Below are positions 17,901 through 40,412 of a DNA stretch of 64,000 nt, piece by piece. The stretch is from a virus. A program made the position numbers and the translations under genes. A model generated the notes under the pieces. The model was not told where the DNA came from. It saw only the letters and a program-made list of their open reading frames with translations, and ran no database searches. The DNA is taken from IMG/VR virus record IMGVR_UViG_3300042261_000762, positions 40,108 to 104,107 of that record; one strand, 5' to 3'. The stretch's first letter is position 1. Every line of letters begins with the position of its first letter.

Positions 17901-18902
17901 GTGATAACTAAGTTTAAATTATTTGAAGCCAATAAGTACACAGACTATGATCCTGATGGTAACTTTAACGTCGGTGATAGAGTCATTGTTAATGGTCATT
18001 ATGTTAATATAACTTTCAAGGGGGAATCAGGAACAATAATTAATTTTTATGAAGCCGGAGATAATAGTAAAAAAAGGGAGATTTTAATTAGATTTGACAG
18101 TAGATTTAATACAGATTTAATGTCGGGTGATAACAATGAAGATCCAAGTGGGACTTCATATTATGTCACTAGTGATTTGGTAGAATTGGAAGATAAAACT
18201 CCTGGGAAAATTAAATGGTATAGTAAGGGTCTTTGGGAGAAATATAATGAAATAGATCCATATAATGAAGAAGACTGGGATGACAAGAATCAAATATTTG
18301 TAATGTATAAAGGTTTTATGGCGGGCGAAGGACAAAGCTATCATTTACATGTAGTTGTTAATAAACATTATGGTGGAAACACAAACGGTCAATATCTTTG
18401 GGATGTAGATAAAAGAGGAATGCCTGATGTTGTTAAATGCGTTTCAGTATATGATCCACGTAGACATAAATTTGCTAGTAGTGAAGAAATAGAGAAATAT
18501 TTAGATTTAGAAAAATTAGAGTCGGTATTTAATTATAGAAATGGTGAAGTTAGAGAAAGTGTTAAATGGTATAAAAATGGAAATTTTGAAAATGAGCCAG
18601 AATGTAAACATGGTAAACATGAATATGTATTAACTCAGAAAGCAACATTTGATAAAAACACATTAAAACCATATTATAAAAATGAAATAAAATGTAAAAG
18701 ATGTGGTAGTGTTAAAAAATATTGTAAGCACGCTTGGTCATATTATGATCTAGTTACACAAGATAGGAATGGAAATAATAAAGTAAAACATTTGTTAAGA
18801 TGTACCAAATGTGGAGAGTATGAAACAGATTTATCAAAAATGCCAAAAGAAAAGGGTGATAGTTTTTCGACAAAAATTAAAAAAATAATCAAAAAGAAAT
18901 AA
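17901..18902 (+). CDS. Modular hypothetical protein (DPYNEE, KWY motifs, C-terminal Cys/His zinc ribbons)
   Basis: MITKFKLFEA; IKWYSKG; VKWYKNG; CKRCG; CTKCG. Confidence 0.8.
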   Translation: MITKFKLFEANKYTDYDPDGNFNVGDRVIVNGHYVNITFKGESGTIINFYEAGDNSKKREILIRFDSRFNTDLMSGDNNEDPSGTSYYVTSDLVELEDKTPGKIKWYSKGLWEKYNEIDPYNEEDWDDKNQIFVMYKGFMAGEGQSYHLHVVVNKHYGGNTNGQYLWDVDKRGMPDVVKCVSVYDPRRHKFASSEEIEKYLDLEKLESVFNYRNGEVRESVKWYKNGNFENEPECKHGKHEYVLTQKATFDKNTLKPYYKNEIKCKRCGSVKKYCKHAWSYYDLVTQDRNGNNKVKHLLRCTKCGEYETDLSKMPKEKGDSFSTKIKKIIKKK

Positions 18903-19319
18903 TTGATAACGAAATTCAAAATATTTGAAAATAACACATTTAGTTTTAAGTTGGATGATATTCTATCACGAAATAGAATGCAAACAAATAGTGAAGCTGA
19001 TCCTTACGGTGAAGAAGATTGGAATAATATTAATGAGGATTCTATAAAAAAAGAATTGATGGGAATAGTTTTAAATAGACACGTCGAGTTTAGAACTTTA
19101 TCATCAGAAGGACCTTTATATAATAAAAAAGTTATCAAGGGTGTTGTTAAAGATGTTATTGTCAAATGGATACCCCATCATCTTGAATATTGGATACTTT
19201 TTTTAATTAATGGTAAAAATCATTATGTTTATCCTAATTTAGATATAAAAGTTAAAGAAAATTTAATGGAACACATAGATATAGATCCTTATGGAGAAGA
19301 AAAATGGGATGAAGAATGA
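18903..19319 (+). CDS. DPYGEE-motif protein (two copies)
   Basis: MITKFKIFEN; ends IDPYGEEKWDEE*. Confidence 0.75.
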   Translation: MITKFKIFENNTFSFKLDDILSRNRMQTNSEADPYGEEDWNNINEDSIKKELMGIVLNRHVEFRTLSSEGPLYNKKVIKGVVKDVIVKWIPHHLEYWILFLINGKNHYVYPNLDIKVKENLMEHIDIDPYGEEKWDEE

Positions 19320-22300
19320 TAAAGAAATTTAAAATATTTAAGATAAATGAAGGAATGTCATTAAATGACATAATATCCAAAGCTGAGAACAAAGGATACG
19401 GTGGAGATATTAGATATATCAAAAAAGATCTAGAGAATAATTTTCTTAATAAAAGAGTCAGAATATATAAAAAAGGCAAACCTTATGTAGAAATAGATGT
19501 GGGAGCAATAGTTCGCGAAGGATTCACTTTTTATTTTGAGGCGTTGGAAGTTTTAGATATGGGAAATCGCGGCATGTATTGGAATTCTTATTCAGAAGCT
19601 GAGAAAAATACAATGATTGGTTTAGTAAAAGGACAAGATACTATTTTTATAAGAATAGACAGCGACGATGATATAGATATTATTGGTGAAGCGGATATTA
19701 AAAAGATAACAAGAAAGAAAGAACAGAGAAAATTAAGAGAATTAAAAAAAGACGTAGATCCTTATGGTGAAGAAGATTGGGGAGAAGACACTAATAAAGT
19801 AATATCTAAATATGATATAAATAGCCCAGATGGACAAGAAAATTTATACAAAAAAGGCGAGGAATATGAAATCGAAACAAACGCAATACACGGTGATCTT
19901 ATTGGAGTAAAAACAGAATTGTCATTTGGACAAAAATATGTTCATTATTTTAGAAGAGAAGACTTCAATGATTATTTTGATAGAATAACAGAATCAATTG
20001 AAAATTTAGATCCTTATGGCGAAGAAAATTGGAATGATGATGAATCTCAGCTTTTTTTGGATTCAATTACTCGATACTTAGATATAAATGCAAAAATACA
20101 TAATATTAAAGATAAATGGTATATTTATTTTGAAAAAGATGATGAATTTTATAAAATATGCAACAATGACGCTGGAAAAATACTTTTATATAATCGCACA
20201 AATCATCATTCAATTGAATTAGTTGATAATGATATAGGTACAAAATTCGATTGGCTAAATATTAGATTAGCTATGCAAAAATTAGAACATAAAAAATCCT
20301 ATGCAAAATTTCAAAATGAAAAAAGAGATTATAAAGACGTTGATCCTTATGGTGAAGAAATTTGGGCTGAAGAAGATGAATATAATTGGATTTATATTAA
20401 TGATCCATATGCTGAAGATGCTAATCCAACATTGAATTTATTAGAGCAACAAATAGGTAAATTTATTGTATTTAAGATTGATTGGACAAATGAATATAAA
20501 GAAGGAGTTTTACAATCTGTTATGATTAATGTGCTTGGAGAAATAGAATTGGAGGTTGATAATCATTTTTATCTATTAGACGAAAGAGAAAGAATAGGAG
20601 TAGCAAAGGAAAATATAATAACGGAACAGTATGATGAACAAGATCCATATGGTGAGGAAATTTGGAATGAAGATCCAAAATTTCAAATAGGAGATAGAGT
20701 AGAATTTGCAAAAGATCCACCCAATAGATCATATTATTATCTGATTGAAGAATTTTTCCCGGATGATCGATCGTATAGATTGAGCATACACGATAAAAAT
20801 ACCAATGAAAGATTTCCTGGTCATGTTTTGATAGATGAATTTAATTTAAAATTAGAAAATATAAAGGAAGAATTCAAGTGGAGAAATAAAAACTATATTT
20901 ATTATACTCAAACATTTATGGATAATAATAAAGTCAATAGAATAATGGAAAAAATTAGTCCTGAATGGATTACTAATAATCCTGTGGCTTTTGAAACATA
21001 CAATAATAAATTATACTTAACTGAGGGACATCATAGATTTGAGGCTTGTTTAAGAAAGAATGATAAAAATTTATTAGAAACTTTATTTAAAACTGCTTTA
21101 TATTATCCAGTGAAAAGAGAACCTAGAAAATTTAAGAAAAAATATATTCCTGAAGATATTAAAATGATAAAAGAAAATAAAGAAATAACAGACGAAAAGA
21201 TAAAAGCAACCATTGATTTTATTTCTAAAACAATAAAAGGCACTGAATGGGAAGGTAAAGTTTATATGGCTGGCGGCGGCGTTAGAGACGAACTCATGGG
21301 CAGAACTTCAAAAGATATAGATTTACTTATTAATGTACCAGACGGCGGAATAAACTTTGCTATATGGTTTACAAAGAAATTGAAAATATACAGAGAAGAT
21401 AAAAATCCTGTTATCTATCCAAGATTTGGAACCGCTAAATTTACTCTAAGAAAACAAAAACATAACGGATTAGATTTATCAGGAATTGATATTGAATGTG
21501 TTATGCCAAGAAAAGAAACTTATACTGAAGGAAGTAGAGATCCAGAGGTAAGTCAAGGCACACTTAAAGATGATGTCGATAGGAGAGATTTTACAGTTAA
21601 TAGTTTGTTGAAAGATTTATCTACTGGGGAAATTCTAGACTTAACAGGAATGGGTAAAGAAGATATTAAAAGGGGAATAGTGAGAACTTCACTTAATCCT
21701 GATGTTATTTTTACTGAAGATCCTTTAAGAATGTTAAGAGCTATAAGATTCACAGTTAAATGTGATTGGGATTTACCTTTATTTATGATTAGAGCCTTAA
21801 AGAAGAACGCAAAACAACTTCAAATAATATCTTCAGAGAGAGTTCAAGATGAATTGAACAAAATGTTATTAACAGGTCATCCTGATAAGGCTATAAGATT
21901 ACTTCAGATAACGGGGTTGAGTAAATATATTTTCCCTGAACTTGATAAACTTATAAAAATGAAACAAAACAAGCATCATAAATATGATGCTATGCGTCAT
22001 TCTTTAGAAGTATTAAAGAATACTCCTCCAGATCTTGTAACAAGATTGTCTGCTTTATTACACGATATAGGTAAAAGTAAAACAAGAGAAATAATTGATA
22101 ATGAAGTTCATTTTTATGAGCATGAAAGGATTGGCGCATTTATGGTAAGGGATATATTAAAAAGGTTGAGATATCCAAAAGAAATAATAAATGCTGTTGT
22201 TATTGCAGTTGAAAATCACATGAAAACAAAACAGTCTGGAGATAAGGGAGATTTAAGTGATAGATCTTTAAGAAAATTGAAACAAGATTTGGGTCCACAT

Positions 22301-22630
22301 CTTCAACAAACATTAGATTTAATTCACGCTGATAATATATCACATTCAGAAGAATCTAACATGCCAAATCAAGTAACTAATATCTTAAAAAGATTTGCTG
22401 ATTTGGAAGAAAGAGATAAACAAAAACAAAAACCAAATCCTTTAACTGGCAGCGAAGTAATGAAAATACTTGATATTAAAGAAGGACCAAAGGGTCCAGA
22501 AGATTCTAAAATGCGTCCTATTGTAGGAAAAATATTAAGATTATTGGGCGATATGTATTTAGATGACCCACATATGAGTAAAGAAGAATTAACTGAAATA
22601 GTCAAAAAATCATACGAAGAATATAAATGA
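19316..22630 (+). CDS. Multi-module protein ending in a CCA-adding enzyme/poly(A) polymerase with HD domain
   Basis: AGGGVRD...DIDL, RRDFTVN, EDPLRMLRAIRF, ERVQDEL, LLHDIGK; about 620-aa N-terminal extension with four DPYGEE motifs and a ParB-like EGHHR. Confidence 0.9.
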   Translation: MIKKFKIFKINEGMSLNDIISKAENKGYGGDIRYIKKDLENNFLNKRVRIYKKGKPYVEIDVGAIVREGFTFYFEALEVLDMGNRGMYWNSYSEAEKNTMIGLVKGQDTIFIRIDSDDDIDIIGEADIKKITRKKEQRKLRELKKDVDPYGEEDWGEDTNKVISKYDINSPDGQENLYKKGEEYEIETNAIHGDLIGVKTELSFGQKYVHYFRREDFNDYFDRITESIENLDPYGEENWNDDESQLFLDSITRYLDINAKIHNIKDKWYIYFEKDDEFYKICNNDAGKILLYNRTNHHSIELVDNDIGTKFDWLNIRLAMQKLEHKKSYAKFQNEKRDYKDVDPYGEEIWAEEDEYNWIYINDPYAEDANPTLNLLEQQIGKFIVFKIDWTNEYKEGVLQSVMINVLGEIELEVDNHFYLLDERERIGVAKENIITEQYDEQDPYGEEIWNEDPKFQIGDRVEFAKDPPNRSYYYLIEEFFPDDRSYRLSIHDKNTNERFPGHVLIDEFNLKLENIKEEFKWRNKNYIYYTQTFMDNNKVNRIMEKISPEWITNNPVAFETYNNKLYLTEGHHRFEACLRKNDKNLLETLFKTALYYPVKREPRKFKKKYIPEDIKMIKENKEITDEKIKATIDFISKTIKGTEWEGKVYMAGGGVRDELMGRTSKDIDLLINVPDGGINFAIWFTKKLKIYREDKNPVIYPRFGTAKFTLRKQKHNGLDLSGIDIECVMPRKETYTEGSRDPEVSQGTLKDDVDRRDFTVNSLLKDLSTGEILDLTGMGKEDIKRGIVRTSLNPDVIFTEDPLRMLRAIRFTVKCDWDLPLFMIRALKKNAKQLQIISSERVQDELNKMLLTGHPDKAIRLLQITGLSKYIFPELDKLIKMKQNKHHKYDAMRHSLEVLKNTPPDLVTRLSALLHDIGKSKTREIIDNEVHFYEHERIGAFMVRDILKRLRYPKEIINAVVIAVENHMKTKQSGDKGDLSDRSLRKLKQDLGPHLQQTLDLIHADNISHSEESNMPNQVTNILKRFADLEERDKQKQKPNPLTGSEVMKILDIKEGPKGPEDSKMRPIVGKILRLLGDMYLDDPHMSKEELTEIVKKSYEEYK

Positions 22631-29487: not shown

Positions 29488-30234
29488 TTATTTTGCAAAT
29501 TTAAGTTTTAATACACTTTCCAAGAAATTTGTTCCAGGAAACATTAGATCTATATTCAATAAATAAGAATCCAATTCTTTATCGTAATCATAACCACTGA
29601 ATTGCATTTCATCAAAATTACTAAATAAACTTAAAGCATATTTATATTGAGACTCCTTATCAAAATAAAAGAAATCTTTTTCATTTAAAATATAATCTCT
29701 AAATATCTGAGTATTAAAATATTGAGATGTAGTAATAAAACTAATTTCATCAAATAGTGACTTGAATCCTTTTTTCAGATATATGTCAAAATCAAGATCT
29801 AGATATTCTATGATATATTTTAGGTTATTAGATATGTTTAGTGGATTTTCTGTAGCTATGTATTTTAGGCCGCTTGGTTCGAGATTCATTCCCATTTTAT
29901 TTAGCATAACATTCATAAGAGTTGGAAGGATGTCCCAACTATAATAGAAGAATGTTGGTATAAATTCGCTGTCTGGAGTAAGAATAAAAACAAATCTAAA
30001 ATCCTTATAATAAAAGTCAACGAATCTGCCTATTTTTTGATATTCATTTGATTTGAATATATCTTCAAGAATTGTTATGTCGGTTTCTTGTGGTATGATT
30101 ATTTTAATATAATCAAATAACTGTTTTTCTTTATAAACAAAAGGAATTTCATTACGAATTTCCTTTCCATCTAATTTATCAGAAACTTCTTTAAGAAGTT
30201 TAAGGAATTCAGGTCTTTCCAGTTTCCTGCTCAT
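29488..30234 (-). CDS. Hypothetical protein, possibly a degenerate nucleotidyltransferase-like fold
   Basis: 248-aa ORF; no clear catalytic motif. Confidence 0.55.
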   Translation of the reverse strand: MSRKLERPEFLKLLKEVSDKLDGKEIRNEIPFVYKEKQLFDYIKIIIPQETDITILEDIFKSNEYQKIGRFVDFYYKDFRFVFILTPDSEFIPTFFYYSWDILPTLMNVMLNKMGMNLEPSGLKYIATENPLNISNNLKYIIEYLDLDFDIYLKKGFKSLFDEISFITTSQYFNTQIFRDYILNEKDFFYFDKESQYKYALSLFSNFDEMQFSGYDYDKELDSYLLNIDLMFPGTNFLESVLKLKFAK

Positions 30235-30454: not shown

Positions 30455-30860
30455 TTAACTCATTAAATTTTTCTTCAAATATGATATTATCTGGTATTTC
30501 TTCAATTCTAAACATCATAGCCATTTCCTCGGGAGAATAGAAATTTAAATTTGTGCCTTCGCCTTTGTATGCAATAAAAAAATCTTTATCTGGATTCTCC
30601 TTTGCAAATACATAAAGTCCATGTATTTCTTGCATTATCTGTCCAACTGTTCTGCTAGGTTGTTTTTTCTTTGTCAAATCTTTTGTTATAATAGCATAAG
30701 ATTGTCCTTGCATACCGTGACACCTTCCATATATGGCTCCGAAATTTTGATAAGCATATAGGGCTGCACCTTTACCGTGTCGACCTTCTGTGTTAGCACC
30801 AAATACAAATATTTCATTAGGTAATAATTCTTTTATATCACCTTTATAAGTTCTTCTCAT
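30441..30860 (-). CDS. Conserved phage protein, macro-like (IFVFGxNxxGxHGxGAA family)
   Basis: EIFVFGANTEGRHGKGAA...GQSYAI. Confidence 0.8.
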   Translation of the reverse strand: MRRTYKGDIKELLPNEIFVFGANTEGRHGKGAALYAYQNFGAIYGRCHGMQGQSYAIITKDLTKKKQPSRTVGQIMQEIHGLYVFAKENPDKDFFIAYKGEGTNLNFYSPEEMAMMFRIEEIPDNIIFEEKFNELIEKI

Positions 30861-30862
30861 TT

Positions 30863-31399
30863 TTAATCCTCCCAAATTTCTTCACCATAAGGATCTAAAT
30901 CTGATATTATTTGTCCTCTTGGCTCTTCTGGTTCATTATTATTATATTTAAAATCTAAGTATGCCAAATGTCCAACTGGAGCTGACATAGGTTTAACAGC
31001 AACTAAATCAAGTCCAATAGTTTTAGCCGCCACTTTCATGGAAAGTGGTAATAACCCTTCGTTACAATCACGAATAGATGTTCCTTCATCATCCCAGTTT
31101 TCCTCACCGTAAGGATCTATTTCTGATATTTTTTGTCCTTTTGGTTCTTGGTGTGCATCCCAATAAGGGTCATAAGATCCAAAATAACCATTAATATCAT
31201 CTATAACTGGATTCTCACTCGGTTTAACCTTTACTAGATCAAGCCCAATAGTTTGCTTAGCTTTATTCCAAGTGTCAGCATTAATATTATCATTCCAATC
31301 ATCGTAGAAATTCCTCCACTCTGGTGATATACCAAGTTTGCTCCACCTATCTATTACTTCTTGGCGGGTATCTTTAATTTTCCCATTGTTCTTCTCCAT
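30863..31399 (-). CDS. Major-capsid-fragment protein with two DPYGEE tags
   Basis: TIGLDLV twice; LLPLSMKVAAKTIGLDLVAVKPMSAPVGHLAYLDFKY resembles the gp23 Gol region. Confidence 0.7.
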   Translation of the reverse strand: MEKNNGKIKDTRQEVIDRWSKLGISPEWRNFYDDWNDNINADTWNKAKQTIGLDLVKVKPSENPVIDDINGYFGSYDPYWDAHQEPKGQKISEIDPYGEENWDDEGTSIRDCNEGLLPLSMKVAAKTIGLDLVAVKPMSAPVGHLAYLDFKYNNNEPEEPRGQIISDLDPYGEEIWED

Positions 31400-31748
31400 A
31401 TGGATCTAAATCTGAATATACTCTTTTTATTTCTTTTCTTGGAGTTCTAACTAAATGTTCTACCTCTCTTTTAATTATATCTCTTAAATTAGATCTTACA
31501 TCTATATTAAAGTAAGATCTCATATCTTCTAACATACTCCTATTAACAGAACAACTTATTTCTCTTCCGTCCAATAGTCTGATCCTCATTCTTGGAGCCC
31601 ATGTAGCCTCACTAATCATTTGAACAGACTGTATTCCATATTCTATCATTTCTTCTTCAGAGAATAAAGAATTATCTTTACTTGTAGTTTTCTCTATAAC
31701 AGGTTTTGACTGTTCTTTATATCTTTCCCAATTATTAAAAAAATTCAT
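31374..31748 (-). CDS. Major-capsid-fragment-like protein with C-terminal DPYGEE tag
   Basis: QSVQMISEATWAPRMRIR; ends KRVYSDLDPYGEEQWEN*. Confidence 0.6.
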   Translation of the reverse strand: MNFFNNWERYKEQSKPVIEKTTSKDNSLFSEEEMIEYGIQSVQMISEATWAPRMRIRLLDGREISCSVNRSMLEDMRSYFNIDVRSNLRDIIKREVEHLVRTPRKEIKRVYSDLDPYGEEQWEN

Positions 31749-31749
31749 A

Positions 31750-32004
31750 TTATTCCTCCCAATCTTCTTCTCCAAAAGGATCTAGTTCAGAATATATCCT
31801 TTTTATTTCTTTTTGTTTTGACGGAATATTTATTGTAGAATAAAATCTATTATCTATCATAGTTGTTGCATACCTAGATTTAATAGTCTTCTTTGGAATA
31901 TTAGTTGAAACATCCACAACTTCACATGGTTTATAAGGCATGTAAACATAACCTTGATTATTTTTTATCCTTTCCATCTCTAGTCTATACATATTATAAC
32001 TCAT
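31750..32004 (-). CDS. Major-capsid C-terminal fragment with DPFGEE tag
   Basis: GYVYMPY...PKKTIKSRYA...NRFY resembles gp23 GIYYAPY...PVMGFKTRYG...NAYF. Confidence 0.7.
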   Translation of the reverse strand: MSYNMYRLEMERIKNNQGYVYMPYKPCEVVDVSTNIPKKTIKSRYATTMIDNRFYSTINIPSKQKEIKRIYSELDPFGEEDWEE

Positions 32005-32007
32005 AAT

Positions 32008-32202
32008 TTAATCCTCCCAATCTTCTTCCCCAAAAGGATCTAAGTCTGAATATACTCTCTTTATTTCCTTTTCTGGCATACTGTGTAATACTGAATATTC
32101 TCTAATCCATGCCATTTTTTCTTCGTCTGTTATTTTAAGTTTGCGTTCTTGCGGTAAAACCCAACTCTTTACAGCTTTTTCTTTATCTATAATTAAATAC
32201 AT
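32008..32202 (-). CDS. Major-capsid N-terminal-like fragment with DPFGEE tag
   Basis: IIDKEKAVKSW...ITDEEKMAWIREYSVLH; ends LDPFGEEDWED*. Confidence 0.55.
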   Translation of the reverse strand: MYLIIDKEKAVKSWVLPQERKLKITDEEKMAWIREYSVLHSMPEKEIKRVYSDLDPFGEEDWED

Positions 32203-32205
32203 AAA

Positions 32206-32592
32206 TTAATCCTCCCAATCTTCTTCGCCATAAGGATCTAAATCTGTAAATTTTTGACCCTTTGGTACATGAGTACTATTATTGCTTATTCCTCCTGTTC
32301 CACTTGATCCACTTACTCCATGAGGACTACAAGAATAATAAGGTCTCCCTATTCCGGCAACTCCTGATGTTCCGCTAGTGCCTACTGCACCACTCATTCC
32401 CATTTTAGCCTTACTAAATCCTGGATCTGCCACTATATCGTAAGATAATATTTTGTGGGATTTAATATATCTATCTACTACTTCTCCTACTCCTCTACTA
32501 CAAACAACAAAATTAGCAGGCGCTGTTCTGCCAGCCTCTGATATTATATTAGAAGCTTCAAGTATCTTGCCTACTAATTTTTTGTTGTTCAT
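32206..32592 (-). CDS. Major-capsid fragment plus SGTSG tract with DPYGEE tag
   Basis: KILEASNIISEAGRTAPANFVVCSRGV resembles gp23 IARQTGRGEGNFIIASRNV. Confidence 0.7.
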   Translation of the reverse strand: MNNKKLVGKILEASNIISEAGRTAPANFVVCSRGVGEVVDRYIKSHKILSYDIVADPGFSKAKMGMSGAVGTSGTSGVAGIGRPYYSCSPHGVSGSSGTGGISNNSTHVPKGQKFTDLDPYGEEDWED

Positions 32593-32951
32593 AATTCTAT
32601 ACTTCCTATCCCCTCATTCCTATCTATACATATTGCTGTAGCCGAATTAGACCCGTCTGATTTCTTATCATTTATAACTATTCTCTCACCTCTACCTAAT
32701 CCCATAACAAGTTGATCATATACAACACCAGATTCAGCTAATTGTTTAATAGTAAAATCTCTTAAACATTCCCTTCTTCCTGTAGTTATAACAACATAAT
32801 AACCAGCCACTTCCCATTCGTCTAATTTTTCTTTAACTCCAGGTAAAAGAACTGTTTCATTATCTTTCAAGGATGACGAATGTCCTCCGTGATGTTTTAA
32901 TAAACATCCGTCTATGTCTAGAAAAATTACTTTACTACTATAATCTATCAT
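32589..32951 (-). CDS. HAD-family phosphatase-like protein
   Basis: FLDIDG, TTGR, INDK. Confidence 0.8.
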   Translation of the reverse strand: MIDYSSKVIFLDIDGCLLKHHGGHSSSLKDNETVLLPGVKEKLDEWEVAGYYVVITTGRRECLRDFTIKQLAESGVVYDQLVMGLGRGERIVINDKKSDGSNSATAICIDRNEGIGSIEL

Positions 32952-34084
32952 TTATCTTTAAATTCTTTTTTATCTACTGATTGATAAAACTTAGAAAAAT
33001 CGAAATATTTATCAAATACATTTCTAATTTCCTCATAAGTCAGAGTTGGTAATATTTTCTCTAAAGAGAACTTATCCATCTCTATAAATTTATATCCATT
33101 ATTATGTAATAAGATGTTTTCTTTTTCGTATTTATTTTGATAGTATTTCTTAGTTATTTCAAATCTTTCCCTTGTTAAATATTTATCTGGATTATCTAAT
33201 ATATTCTTTATTAATTCCTGAACTTTATCTACATTCTTATTTGAAGTTACAGTCTCAAATATAGCTATGGCAGAATTATTAGTTACTTCTCTATTATAAC
33301 AATGAACAAAATACACAAGCCCGTGCTTCTCTCTTATTTCTTGATAAAGAGGAGATTTCAATCCGCCACCTAACATTCTTGTTATGAATTGAAGATGTGG
33401 GAAATGATCATGTATAATTGGTGATAAGTTAATAATAGAAGATTTATCTTTATAACTATTTCCTTTTTCATATATGAAATCGTTATCTACATTAAGAACT
33501 AACTCTTTATCTTCATAGGTTCTATTATCAAATTCCACTTTAGAGAAGAATTCTTCTGTCTTTTTATCTGTGCTTTTTGATACGTCTACAATCATAGTTG
33601 GTTTTCTGTATTGTAGTTCAAAGAAATCCTGACAATCTTTTAATGTTAGACCTTCTAAATCTTCTAGTAATCCTATTGCTTCATAATAACCATATAATTT
33701 TCTAAAAAGATTTTGACCGTGAGCGTCTGATTGTTTATTGAAAGAATCTTTATATTCTTCTATAACAATTTTTTTCTCATTTTGAAATTGCTCTTCAGTG
33801 ATATTGAAATTCTGAAGATGTTCGAAGAATTTCTTTTTCCATCTTTTAACATTTTTATCCATTCCAGTCATATAAAATACAATCTCTTTGTCTGAAGTAT
33901 ATGCATTCCAATGTATAGCATCTCTTTCGAAATCTTCCATTAGACTATCTATTCCTTTACATACAAGGTGTTCCATTATGTGTGAAATACCATAGATTCC
34001 TTTATGTTCATTCATTGTGCTTCCATAATAAGCAATGTAAAACCCAGATAAGGGTGTTGGTGATTTGATTTTCTTATAATTCAT
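32948..34084 (-). CDS. M16 family zinc peptidase
   Basis: GISHIMEH (HxxEH), NAYTS, LYQEIREKHGLVY. Confidence 0.92.
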   Translation of the reverse strand: MNYKKIKSPTPLSGFYIAYYGSTMNEHKGIYGISHIMEHLVCKGIDSLMEDFERDAIHWNAYTSDKEIVFYMTGMDKNVKRWKKKFFEHLQNFNITEEQFQNEKKIVIEEYKDSFNKQSDAHGQNLFRKLYGYYEAIGLLEDLEGLTLKDCQDFFELQYRKPTMIVDVSKSTDKKTEEFFSKVEFDNRTYEDKELVLNVDNDFIYEKGNSYKDKSSIINLSPIIHDHFPHLQFITRMLGGGLKSPLYQEIREKHGLVYFVHCYNREVTNNSAIAIFETVTSNKNVDKVQELIKNILDNPDKYLTRERFEITKKYYQNKYEKENILLHNNGYKFIEMDKFSLEKILPTLTYEEIRNVFDKYFDFSKFYQSVDKKEFKDK

Positions 34085-39962: not shown

Positions 39963-40412
39963 ATGAAAGTTAAAACATTATTAGATTTCATAAACGAACA
40001 ATCTGGTAGCGATTACGATAAAATTTTTTGGGATCCATCAGGACCATATGGCGTTGGTAAGGCAGATAAACCAATTTATAAAAAGCTCAGAGAGAGAATA
40101 ATTCCCGGATATGATGGTCCGATTGAAGAAGAGGATGAAGATCCATTCATGTCCGGCCTTAATCAAAAAAGAAATTACAACAAAATAGAGAATGATGCTG
40201 AAGTTTTATATCATTCTGTAGAACCAGAAAATCTTGAAGATGTTATGGAAGAAGGACTTCATGGTCAAATATATTTAACAAAAACTCCACAAGAAGCACG
40301 TAAACATCATCCTATAGTCCTAAAAATAAACGTTAAAGGTCGTAAATTAACAGTAAAAGATGAAGGTTTTGTAGTAAAAGATGTTCCTGTAGATCAAATA
40401 ACTGAATTATAA
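39963..40412 (+). CDS. Putative ADP-ribosyltransferase-fold (Tpt1/KptA-like) protein with capsid-targeting-like start
   Basis: MKVKTLLDFINEQ; LYHS...I/VxxEGL...IYLT...VLKIN...VPVDQI. Confidence 0.55.
   Translation: MKVKTLLDFINEQSGSDYDKIFWDPSGPYGVGKADKPIYKKLRERIIPGYDGPIEEEDEDPFMSGLNQKRNYNKIENDAEVLYHSVEPENLEDVMEEGLHGQIYLTKTPQEARKHHPIVLKINVKGRKLTVKDEGFVVKDVPVDQITEL

Follow-up and report, generated by a model that had tools for sequence, protein, structure and literature searches.

Five tagged mini-genes stitched together from pieces of capsid-building proteins in a giant lake-water phage

In phage T4, the internal proteins and Alt share a short capsid targeting sequence (CTS), which is removed by the prohead protease gp21. 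T4 also provides the Gol peptide of gp23, which together with EF-Tu activates the Lit protease. Phage satellites utilize capsid-protein homologs to redirect helper capsid assembly. In the amino-group carrier protein LysW, an acidic C-terminal EDWGE motif is recognized by the RimK-family ligases LysX/ArgX (PMC10433800), and RimK acts on ribosomal protein S6. The locus described here resembles each of these systems only in part. Similar to the CTS, it involves a short peptide shared by unrelated proteins of a T4-type phage, and the clade possesses a T4-type portal, an S77 protease and a gp23 major capsid protein (MCP), with a scaffold carrying about 14 repeats ending in Y-I-A-E, like T4 cleavage sites. 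However, the CTS is an N-terminal leader of about 10 residues ending in an L/I-x-E cleavage site, whereas the shared peptide is acidic, is C-terminal in the five mini-genes, and elsewhere occurs at N-termini, in linkers and at C-termini, up to six times per protein; many of these tags follow an N-terminal M-I-K-K-F-K-I-F-E leader. In the case of Gol, mini-gene E keeps, twice, the segment matching Gp23 profile positions 5-48, the most conserved N-terminal stretch, where Gol lies, but Gol is part of the full capsid protein and triggers defence, while here the segment belongs to a free-standing tagged mini-protein. Compared with the satellite homologs, which are whole folded domains encoded by a parasite of the phage, these extra copies of capsid-protein sequence, which could interfere with assembly, are short mosaics encoded by the phage itself and carry a proteome-wide tag. 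Compared with LysW, the tag has an acidic tail with Trp of the form E-[ED]-W-[GE]-[ED], but the tails of the five genes end in WED, WEE or WEN rather than an invariant Glu, there is no Cys4 zinc ribbon, and the tag is often internal.

The window analysed is a stretch of 64,000 nucleotides (positions 40,108 to 104,107 of IMG/VR record IMGVR_UViG_3300042261_000762), belonging to a 104-kb virus fragment that CheckV rates 32% complete. The GC content is about 29%, and stop-codon usage is standard. The nearest public relative is the 735-kb uncultured phage LR756501, with 76% nucleotide identity over 45% of a 6-kb probe. The DNA sequencing runs holding the stretch are lake or freshwater metagenomes, and no RNA run holding it was listed. 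Five tightly packed tandem minus-strand ORFs, named A to E in order of transcription, lie between 32592 and 30863. All of them end in [ST][DE]LDP[YF]GEExWE[DEN] followed by a TAA stop, and reading TAG as Gln changes nothing, so stop-codon recoding was rejected. Two linkers are shared, KEIKR[VI]YS in B, C and D, and P[KR]GQ in A and twice in E. The positions of the pieces are collected in Table 1.

Table 1. Mini-genes A to E and the adjacent phosphatase gene, with window coordinates; MCP and protease residue numbers refer to the proteins of LR756501.
Feature	Position	Strand	Length	Pieces and their positions	Remarks
Mini-gene A	32206..32592	-	128 aa	MCP 459-494-like piece (32476-32583); prohead-protease 149-166-like piece (32401-32454); collagen-like G-X-Y repeats (32275-32400); PKGQ linker plus tag (32209-32265)	
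Mini-gene B	32008..32202	-	64 aa	Copy of the MCP N-terminal propeptide, MCP 26-68 (32071-32202); KEIKRVYS linker plus tag (32011-32070)	
Mini-gene C	31750..32004	-	84 aa	MCP C-terminal piece, about MCP 552-587 (31831-31959); KEIKRIYS linker plus tag (31753-31812)	Orthologs in LR756501 and in the related loci L053 and L324
Mini-gene D	31374..31748	-	124 aa	MCP 562-579 piece (31578-31631); MCP 366-403 piece (31449-31562); linker plus tag (31377-31436)	Likely ATG start; the ORF listing gives a TTG at 31775; ortholog L053:4862-5293
Mini-gene E	30863..31399	-	178 aa	Degenerate MCP N-arm copy (31145-31261); internal read-through tag (31094-31117); well-kept MCP 106-149 copy, the T4 Gol-region equivalent (30938-31069); PRGQ linker plus tag (30866-30925)	Start overlaps D by 26 nt in another frame
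Small cap-less HAD phosphatase (PNKP-phosphatase-like)	32589..32951	-			Stop overlaps the start of A

All five ORFs carry pieces of a T4 gp23-type MCP. A Pfam profile search gave Gp23 (PF07068) hits at three different profile positions, E at 5-48 (9e-5), C at 314-356 (8e-3) and A at 222-256 (0.047). The scores of 22.4, 16.1 and 13.5 bits are below the gathering score of 24.4 bits, and each hit covers only 35-45 of 376 profile positions; these are fragments of the family, not members. Since the real capsid gene is not on this fragment, the 608-aa MCP of LR756501, which aligns with T4 gp23, was used for comparison. By blastp with the tag masked, residues 111-154 of E match MCP 106-149 (59% identity, 3e-12), and a degenerate second copy at residues 47-85 matches MCP 119-157. 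Residues 1-44 of B match MCP 26-68 (2e-8), which is the true MCP N-terminus, because the ortholog in the tag-positive genome G001 (243 kb) starts at residue 26. D matches MCP 562-579 (78%, 1e-4), and A matches MCP 459-494 (7e-3) and also residues 149-166 of the prohead protease (72%, 8e-4). Shuffle tests confirm A (0 of 2000) and C (4 of 2000), and add the second piece of D, MCP 366-403 (0 of 2000). This piece lies after the C-terminal piece, hence the order is the reverse of that in the MCP. The Gly-rich part of A is a G-X-Y repeat like those of two giant collagen-like proteins of LR756501. The T4 gp23 equivalents assigned from sequence alone in the preliminary description map correctly.

The tag is not private to these genes. 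The DNA pattern for DPYGEE occurs 36 times in the window against 0.05 expected, and 40 peptide copies exist on the 104-kb contig. LR756501 has 109 DNA matches against 0 for the control, corresponding to 110 tags on 95 ORFs, of which 42 are C-terminal, 21 N-terminal and 47 internal. The tag is also present in G001 (38 copies) and in a further genome, G002, but is absent from three sister megaphages, LR756500, LR756502 and LR745206. At least 113 IMG/VR stretches carry it. In cellular genomes only single hits scattered over many taxa were found; with a rough estimate of a few dozen chance matches, there is no sign of a host motif being mimicked. The conserved module is longer than the core motif, at about 20 residues, and consists of basic residues, then [VI]-[FY]-[ST]-[DE]-[LI], then DPYGEE-x-W, followed by [ED][ED], with the Trp invariant in 66 of 66 C-terminal copies. 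The N-terminal M-I-K-K-F-K-I-F-E form looks like the same module. About 10% of the proteins of this megaphage clade carry the tag, and carriers with a known domain include a CCA-adding/HD enzyme, GNAT, methyltransferase, PRTase and LRR proteins. A DNA-level site was rejected, as every copy is in frame on the coding strand with synonymous variation, although codons are biased. The tag is also unlikely to be the prohead-protease cleavage site, since the scaffold repeats point to Y-I-A-E specificity instead. In the literature searched, DPYGEE appears in three unrelated papers only, with no mention in a phage paper, and a search for decoy or truncated capsid proteins in phages gave no precedent.

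Fragment mini-proteins form a family. In LR756501, tagged small ORFs carry pieces of the portal (residues 259-334), the prohead protease domain (39-156), scaffold repeats, the MCP (three more pieces) and the tail sheath (28-67 and 1173-1262). In the protease piece, the His and Ser of the two conserved protease motifs of the parent appear to have been replaced, judged by eye from the sequences. Seventeen of 180 distinct tagged ORFs from IMG/VR match these four parents. Small ORFs with MCP, portal and protease pieces also exist in LR756500 and LR756502, without the tag.

At this locus, the number of mini-genes varies among relatives. Nine are found in L053, tiling most of the MCP and including a sheath piece, five here, two in LR756501 and L324, one in L328, and none in the other loci examined (L049/L326, L051/L052/L318, L331, L320/L322, L332, L336, L337), some of which are the same contig sampled twice. 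The array is a variable island situated next to a homing endonuclease, a methyltransferase-like gene, a Pol-beta-type nucleotidyltransferase and the HAD. The HAD sits directly upstream of every array of two or more mini-genes and nowhere else, being absent from the loci without an array. Orthologous mini-genes show dN/dS of 0.22-0.45 at dS above 1.2, except for the closer L053-LR756501 pair (dS 0.75), whereas neighbouring genes give 0.04-0.15. Such relaxed purifying selection rules out neutral decay.

Several candidates for the reader of the tag were excluded. The neighbouring M16B peptidase is conserved in loci without any mini-gene and in the tag-free LR756502 and LR745206, which also argues against RiPP precursors processed by a specifically linked peptidase. 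The HAD is absent from G001 despite its 38 tags. The 248-aa neighbour has a predicted Pol-beta-type nucleotidyltransferase fold (pLDDT 92). SH3-like beta-barrels lie next to many tags, but an AlphaFold2 model of a repeat unit leaves both tags disordered and undocked. Presence/absence profiling left 97 candidates, too many to be useful. Among them are a RimK/LysX-family ATP-grasp ligase (Pfam RimK 1.7e-20; NCBIfam rimK_fam 2.7e-25, LysX 1.5e-16), an acetylornithine-deacetylase-like protein (8e-43) and a class II aaRS-like protein, all present in the tag-positive LR756501 and G001 and absent from the tag-free LR756500 and LR756502. The ligase was not found on the present, incomplete 104-kb fragment. 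NCBIfam places this only ligase found with RimK, LysX and MptN, and no graspetide maturase family of the MvdC/MvdD type was hit, so a microviridin-type core is not supported. A predicted complex of the ligase with mini-protein B scored 0.00, below the mark, and gave no verdict.

Taken together, the observation of five ORFs with different capsid-protein pieces and a common C-terminal tag holds, and is stronger than first claimed. The interpretation given in the preliminary description is partly supported. The genes do form a library of capsid-protein pieces out of capsid order, each fused to a shared tag; they are not a broken gene, being intact, tightly packed and conserved in relatives; and the idea that the tag links them to a common partner fits its presence on about 10% of the proteome. 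However, the tag is not specific to these genes, the pieces are mosaics derived also from the prohead protease, a collagen-like fibre and, in relatives, portal, scaffold and sheath, and the statement that the capsid N-terminus is missing is wrong, because B is the MCP propeptide. The proposed binding of host sensors and recruitment of a protease by the tag remain suppositions, and dominant-negative assembly poisoning remains a live alternative.

The preferred, though tentative, explanation is that each gene encodes a small bait fused to a docking tag. In this view, the bait is a mosaic of 18-45-residue segments copied long ago from the phage's own virion-building proteins, keeping the most conserved linear motifs in an order that cannot rebuild the capsid fold, and would act as a linear mimic of unassembled virion protein, occupying whatever binds those segments. 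This is judged most likely to be a host surveillance factor (a sensor, protease or chaperone recognizing conserved virion proteins), so that the proteins would act as decoys, and the tag, predicted to be flexible, would couple that event to a common, as yet unidentified partner of the clade. The anatomy, the origin of the pieces, the genome-wide spread of the tag, conservation and selection are demonstrated by the present analysis, whereas the binding partners and the decoy role are inferred, with no host sensor, hub or binding event in evidence. Stretches of 9-13 residues identical to the MCP inside otherwise diverged proteins point to selection on linear motifs, pieces of different proteins are combined in one 128-aa product, the same design employs portal, sheath, scaffold repeats and the protease domain, and the genes, in a variable island, are selected but fast-evolving, as accessory arms-race genes usually are. 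Furthermore, conserved virion proteins are established triggers of bacterial Avs sensors (preprint 10.64898/2026.01.04.697583). However, Avs-type sensors read folded cores, which these mosaics cannot form, and a bait resembling the Gol region could trigger rather than block a Lit-like system. A bolder and rather unlikely reading, which would have no described precedent in phages, is that megaphages run a proteome-wide peptide-address system, in this clade DPYGEExW, possibly read or modified by a RimK/LysX-like ligase, and use it to deploy poly-epitope mosaics of their own capsid, portal, protease and sheath proteins as decoys that would blunt bacterial pattern-recognition immunity. Since conserved virion proteins are the main molecular patterns detected by bacterial immune sensors, a virus making tagged mosaics of exactly those proteins points either to a new kind of counter-defence or to a new layer of control over the assembly of very large capsids. 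Meanwhile, the tag, marking about a hundred proteins per genome, gives a direct handle on an unknown phage-wide sorting or modification system.

A role in the phage's own morphogenesis is nearly as likely as the decoy role. The pieces may bind the phage's capsid protein, scaffold, protease, portal and sheath by mimicking an arm or strand, thereby holding subunits back from premature assembly, acting as competitive substrates or pseudo-enzyme regulators of the prohead protease, or sitting in the prohead core as small components, with the tag tying them to the tagged protein network. B keeps an M-x-E site like the MCP's own, other family members carry scaffold repeats full of Y-I-A-E sites and the apparently inactivated protease domain, and the same portal (about 265-335), sheath (about 1175-1260) and MCP N-arm pieces recur in four genomes, including tag-free ones. 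The untagged small ORFs of LR756500 and LR756502 suggest an old, stable role needing no tag, which fits an assembly function as well or better. However, the copy number of 0 to 9 among close relatives and the faster evolution than in the neighbours speak against it, mosaics mixing unrelated proteins are odd for a specific assembly contact, and sheath pieces lie in the same array as head pieces. Dominant-negative weapons against the capsid, portal or sheath assembly of co-infecting related phages or satellites are improbable; the pieces cover conserved, probably interface-forming segments and the array content is variable, but the motifs are shared with the MCP of the phage's own clade, so self-poisoning would need a separate escape, and no evidence of satellites or of any exclusion phenotype was found.

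Equally doubtful, and concerning the tag only, is the possibility that the acidic EExW[EG][ED] tail is a handle for the RimK/LysX-type ligase and a deacylase-like enzyme, by analogy with LysW or S6, so that tagged proteins would be modified or carried rather than simply docked. The ligase lies in a run with two tagged genes, and tags ending in EEDWGE occur. However, about two thirds of the tags are internal or N-terminal, the ligase scores are far below family cut-offs, more distant ligase homologs have no tags within 10-20 kb, and the co-occurrence could simply be shared descent, as 97 genes show the same pattern. It is also unlikely that the ORFs are largely by-products of a tag-coding cassette that spreads by recombination and captures gene fragments, giving chimeric ORFs with little function of their own. 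Tag codons are more uniform than genome usage predicts (CCT 0.66-0.69 against 0.33-0.37, GGT 0.62-0.66 against 0.33-0.50), suggesting spread as DNA, the pieces are reshuffled between genomes, and E carries an internal read-through tag. On the other hand, all five frames are open and tightly coupled, orthologs persist at dS above 1.2 under the selection described above, MCP-like key residues are kept while the flanks diverge, and the same pieces recur across distant genomes.

Several genes in the window carry the DPYGEExW tag in more than one copy. The CCA-adding/poly(A)-polymerase plus HD enzyme, of 1104 aa, possesses a 450-residue N-terminal extension in which five tags are situated, and its ortholog in the 735-kb relative LR756501 (1233 aa) also contains a cytidine-deaminase domain. 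A 333-aa protein, which heads a run of three multi-tag genes, combines the M-I-T-K-F-K-L-F-E leader, an SH3-like beta-barrel, a variant tag DPYNEEDW, W-Y-x-x-G repeats, and Cys-rich stretches. In the tag-positive relative G001, a 673-aa protein is built of six units, each constituted by an SH3-like barrel, a basic helix, and then RLKHMDIDPYGEEDW. Further variants of the tag, DPWQEEDW and DPWSEEIW, were observed in more distant relatives.

Coordinates of the features in the window and in related genomes (L-numbers denote individual loci sampled from relatives)
Source	Position	Strand	Feature
Window	17901-18902	+	Multi-tag run, first gene
Window	19316-22630	+	CCA-adding/poly(A)-polymerase plus HD enzyme
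Window	29488-30234	-	Conserved 248-aa protein just downstream of the array island
Window	32203-32215, 32005-32017, 31749-31760, 30860-30872	-	W-E-[DE] codons of the terminal tags
Window	32948-34084	-	M16B 'processing protease'
Window	19 sites (e.g. 3927, 11347, 28982, 50567)		TAATATATA
LR756501	73913-76336 (L013:16913-19336)		S77 prohead protease-scaffold fusion
LR756501	86972-89503 (L014)		RimK/LysX-like ligase next to a class II aaRS-like protein and two tagged genes
G001	77009-79030 (L064)		Six-unit SH3-like protein
G001	115016-118063 (L066)		RimK/LysX-like ligase next to a class II aaRS-like protein and two tagged genes
L004	6069-6869		LAGLIDADG-type homing-endonuclease-like ORF
L053	2489-3301		LAGLIDADG-type homing-endonuclease-like ORF
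L320, L347/L348	L320:8775-10580		Variant tags

Around the array of mini-genes, the M16B protease retains an intact H-x-x-E-H motif and is a core gene shared with the tag-free megaphages. In two relatives, but not in the window, an ORF resembling a LAGLIDADG-type homing endonuclease, identified by eye from its motifs, is situated between the M16 gene and the HAD-plus-array cassette. The AlphaFold2 model of the 248-aa protein (pLDDT 92) matches Pol beta/lambda nucleotidyltransferase folds (Foldseek E 1.7e-4, TM about 0.45), and this protein has 41 homologs, all of them unnamed.

In LR756501 and G001, a RimK/LysX-like ATP-grasp ligase lies next to a class II aaRS-like protein and two tagged genes, and an acetylornithine-deacetylase-like gene is situated elsewhere; all are absent from LR756500 and LR756502. 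In LR756501, the S77 prohead protease is fused with a scaffold to form a protein of 807 aa, in which the scaffold carries about 14 tandem 14-residue repeats ending in Y-I-A-E, like T4 gp21 cleavage sites.

At the nucleotide level, the 19 occurrences of TAATATATA compare with 5.3 expected, and most of them are located 5-25 nt upstream of start codons. Near-variants of this motif in LR756501 precede the portal, protease-scaffold, and sheath genes, as well as 13 of the 28 tagged genes that have an upstream gap. In addition, the codons for W-E-[DE] in the terminal tags of the array spell GGAGG 7-9 nt before the ATG of the next gene, so the tag end doubles as a Shine-Dalgarno-like site.
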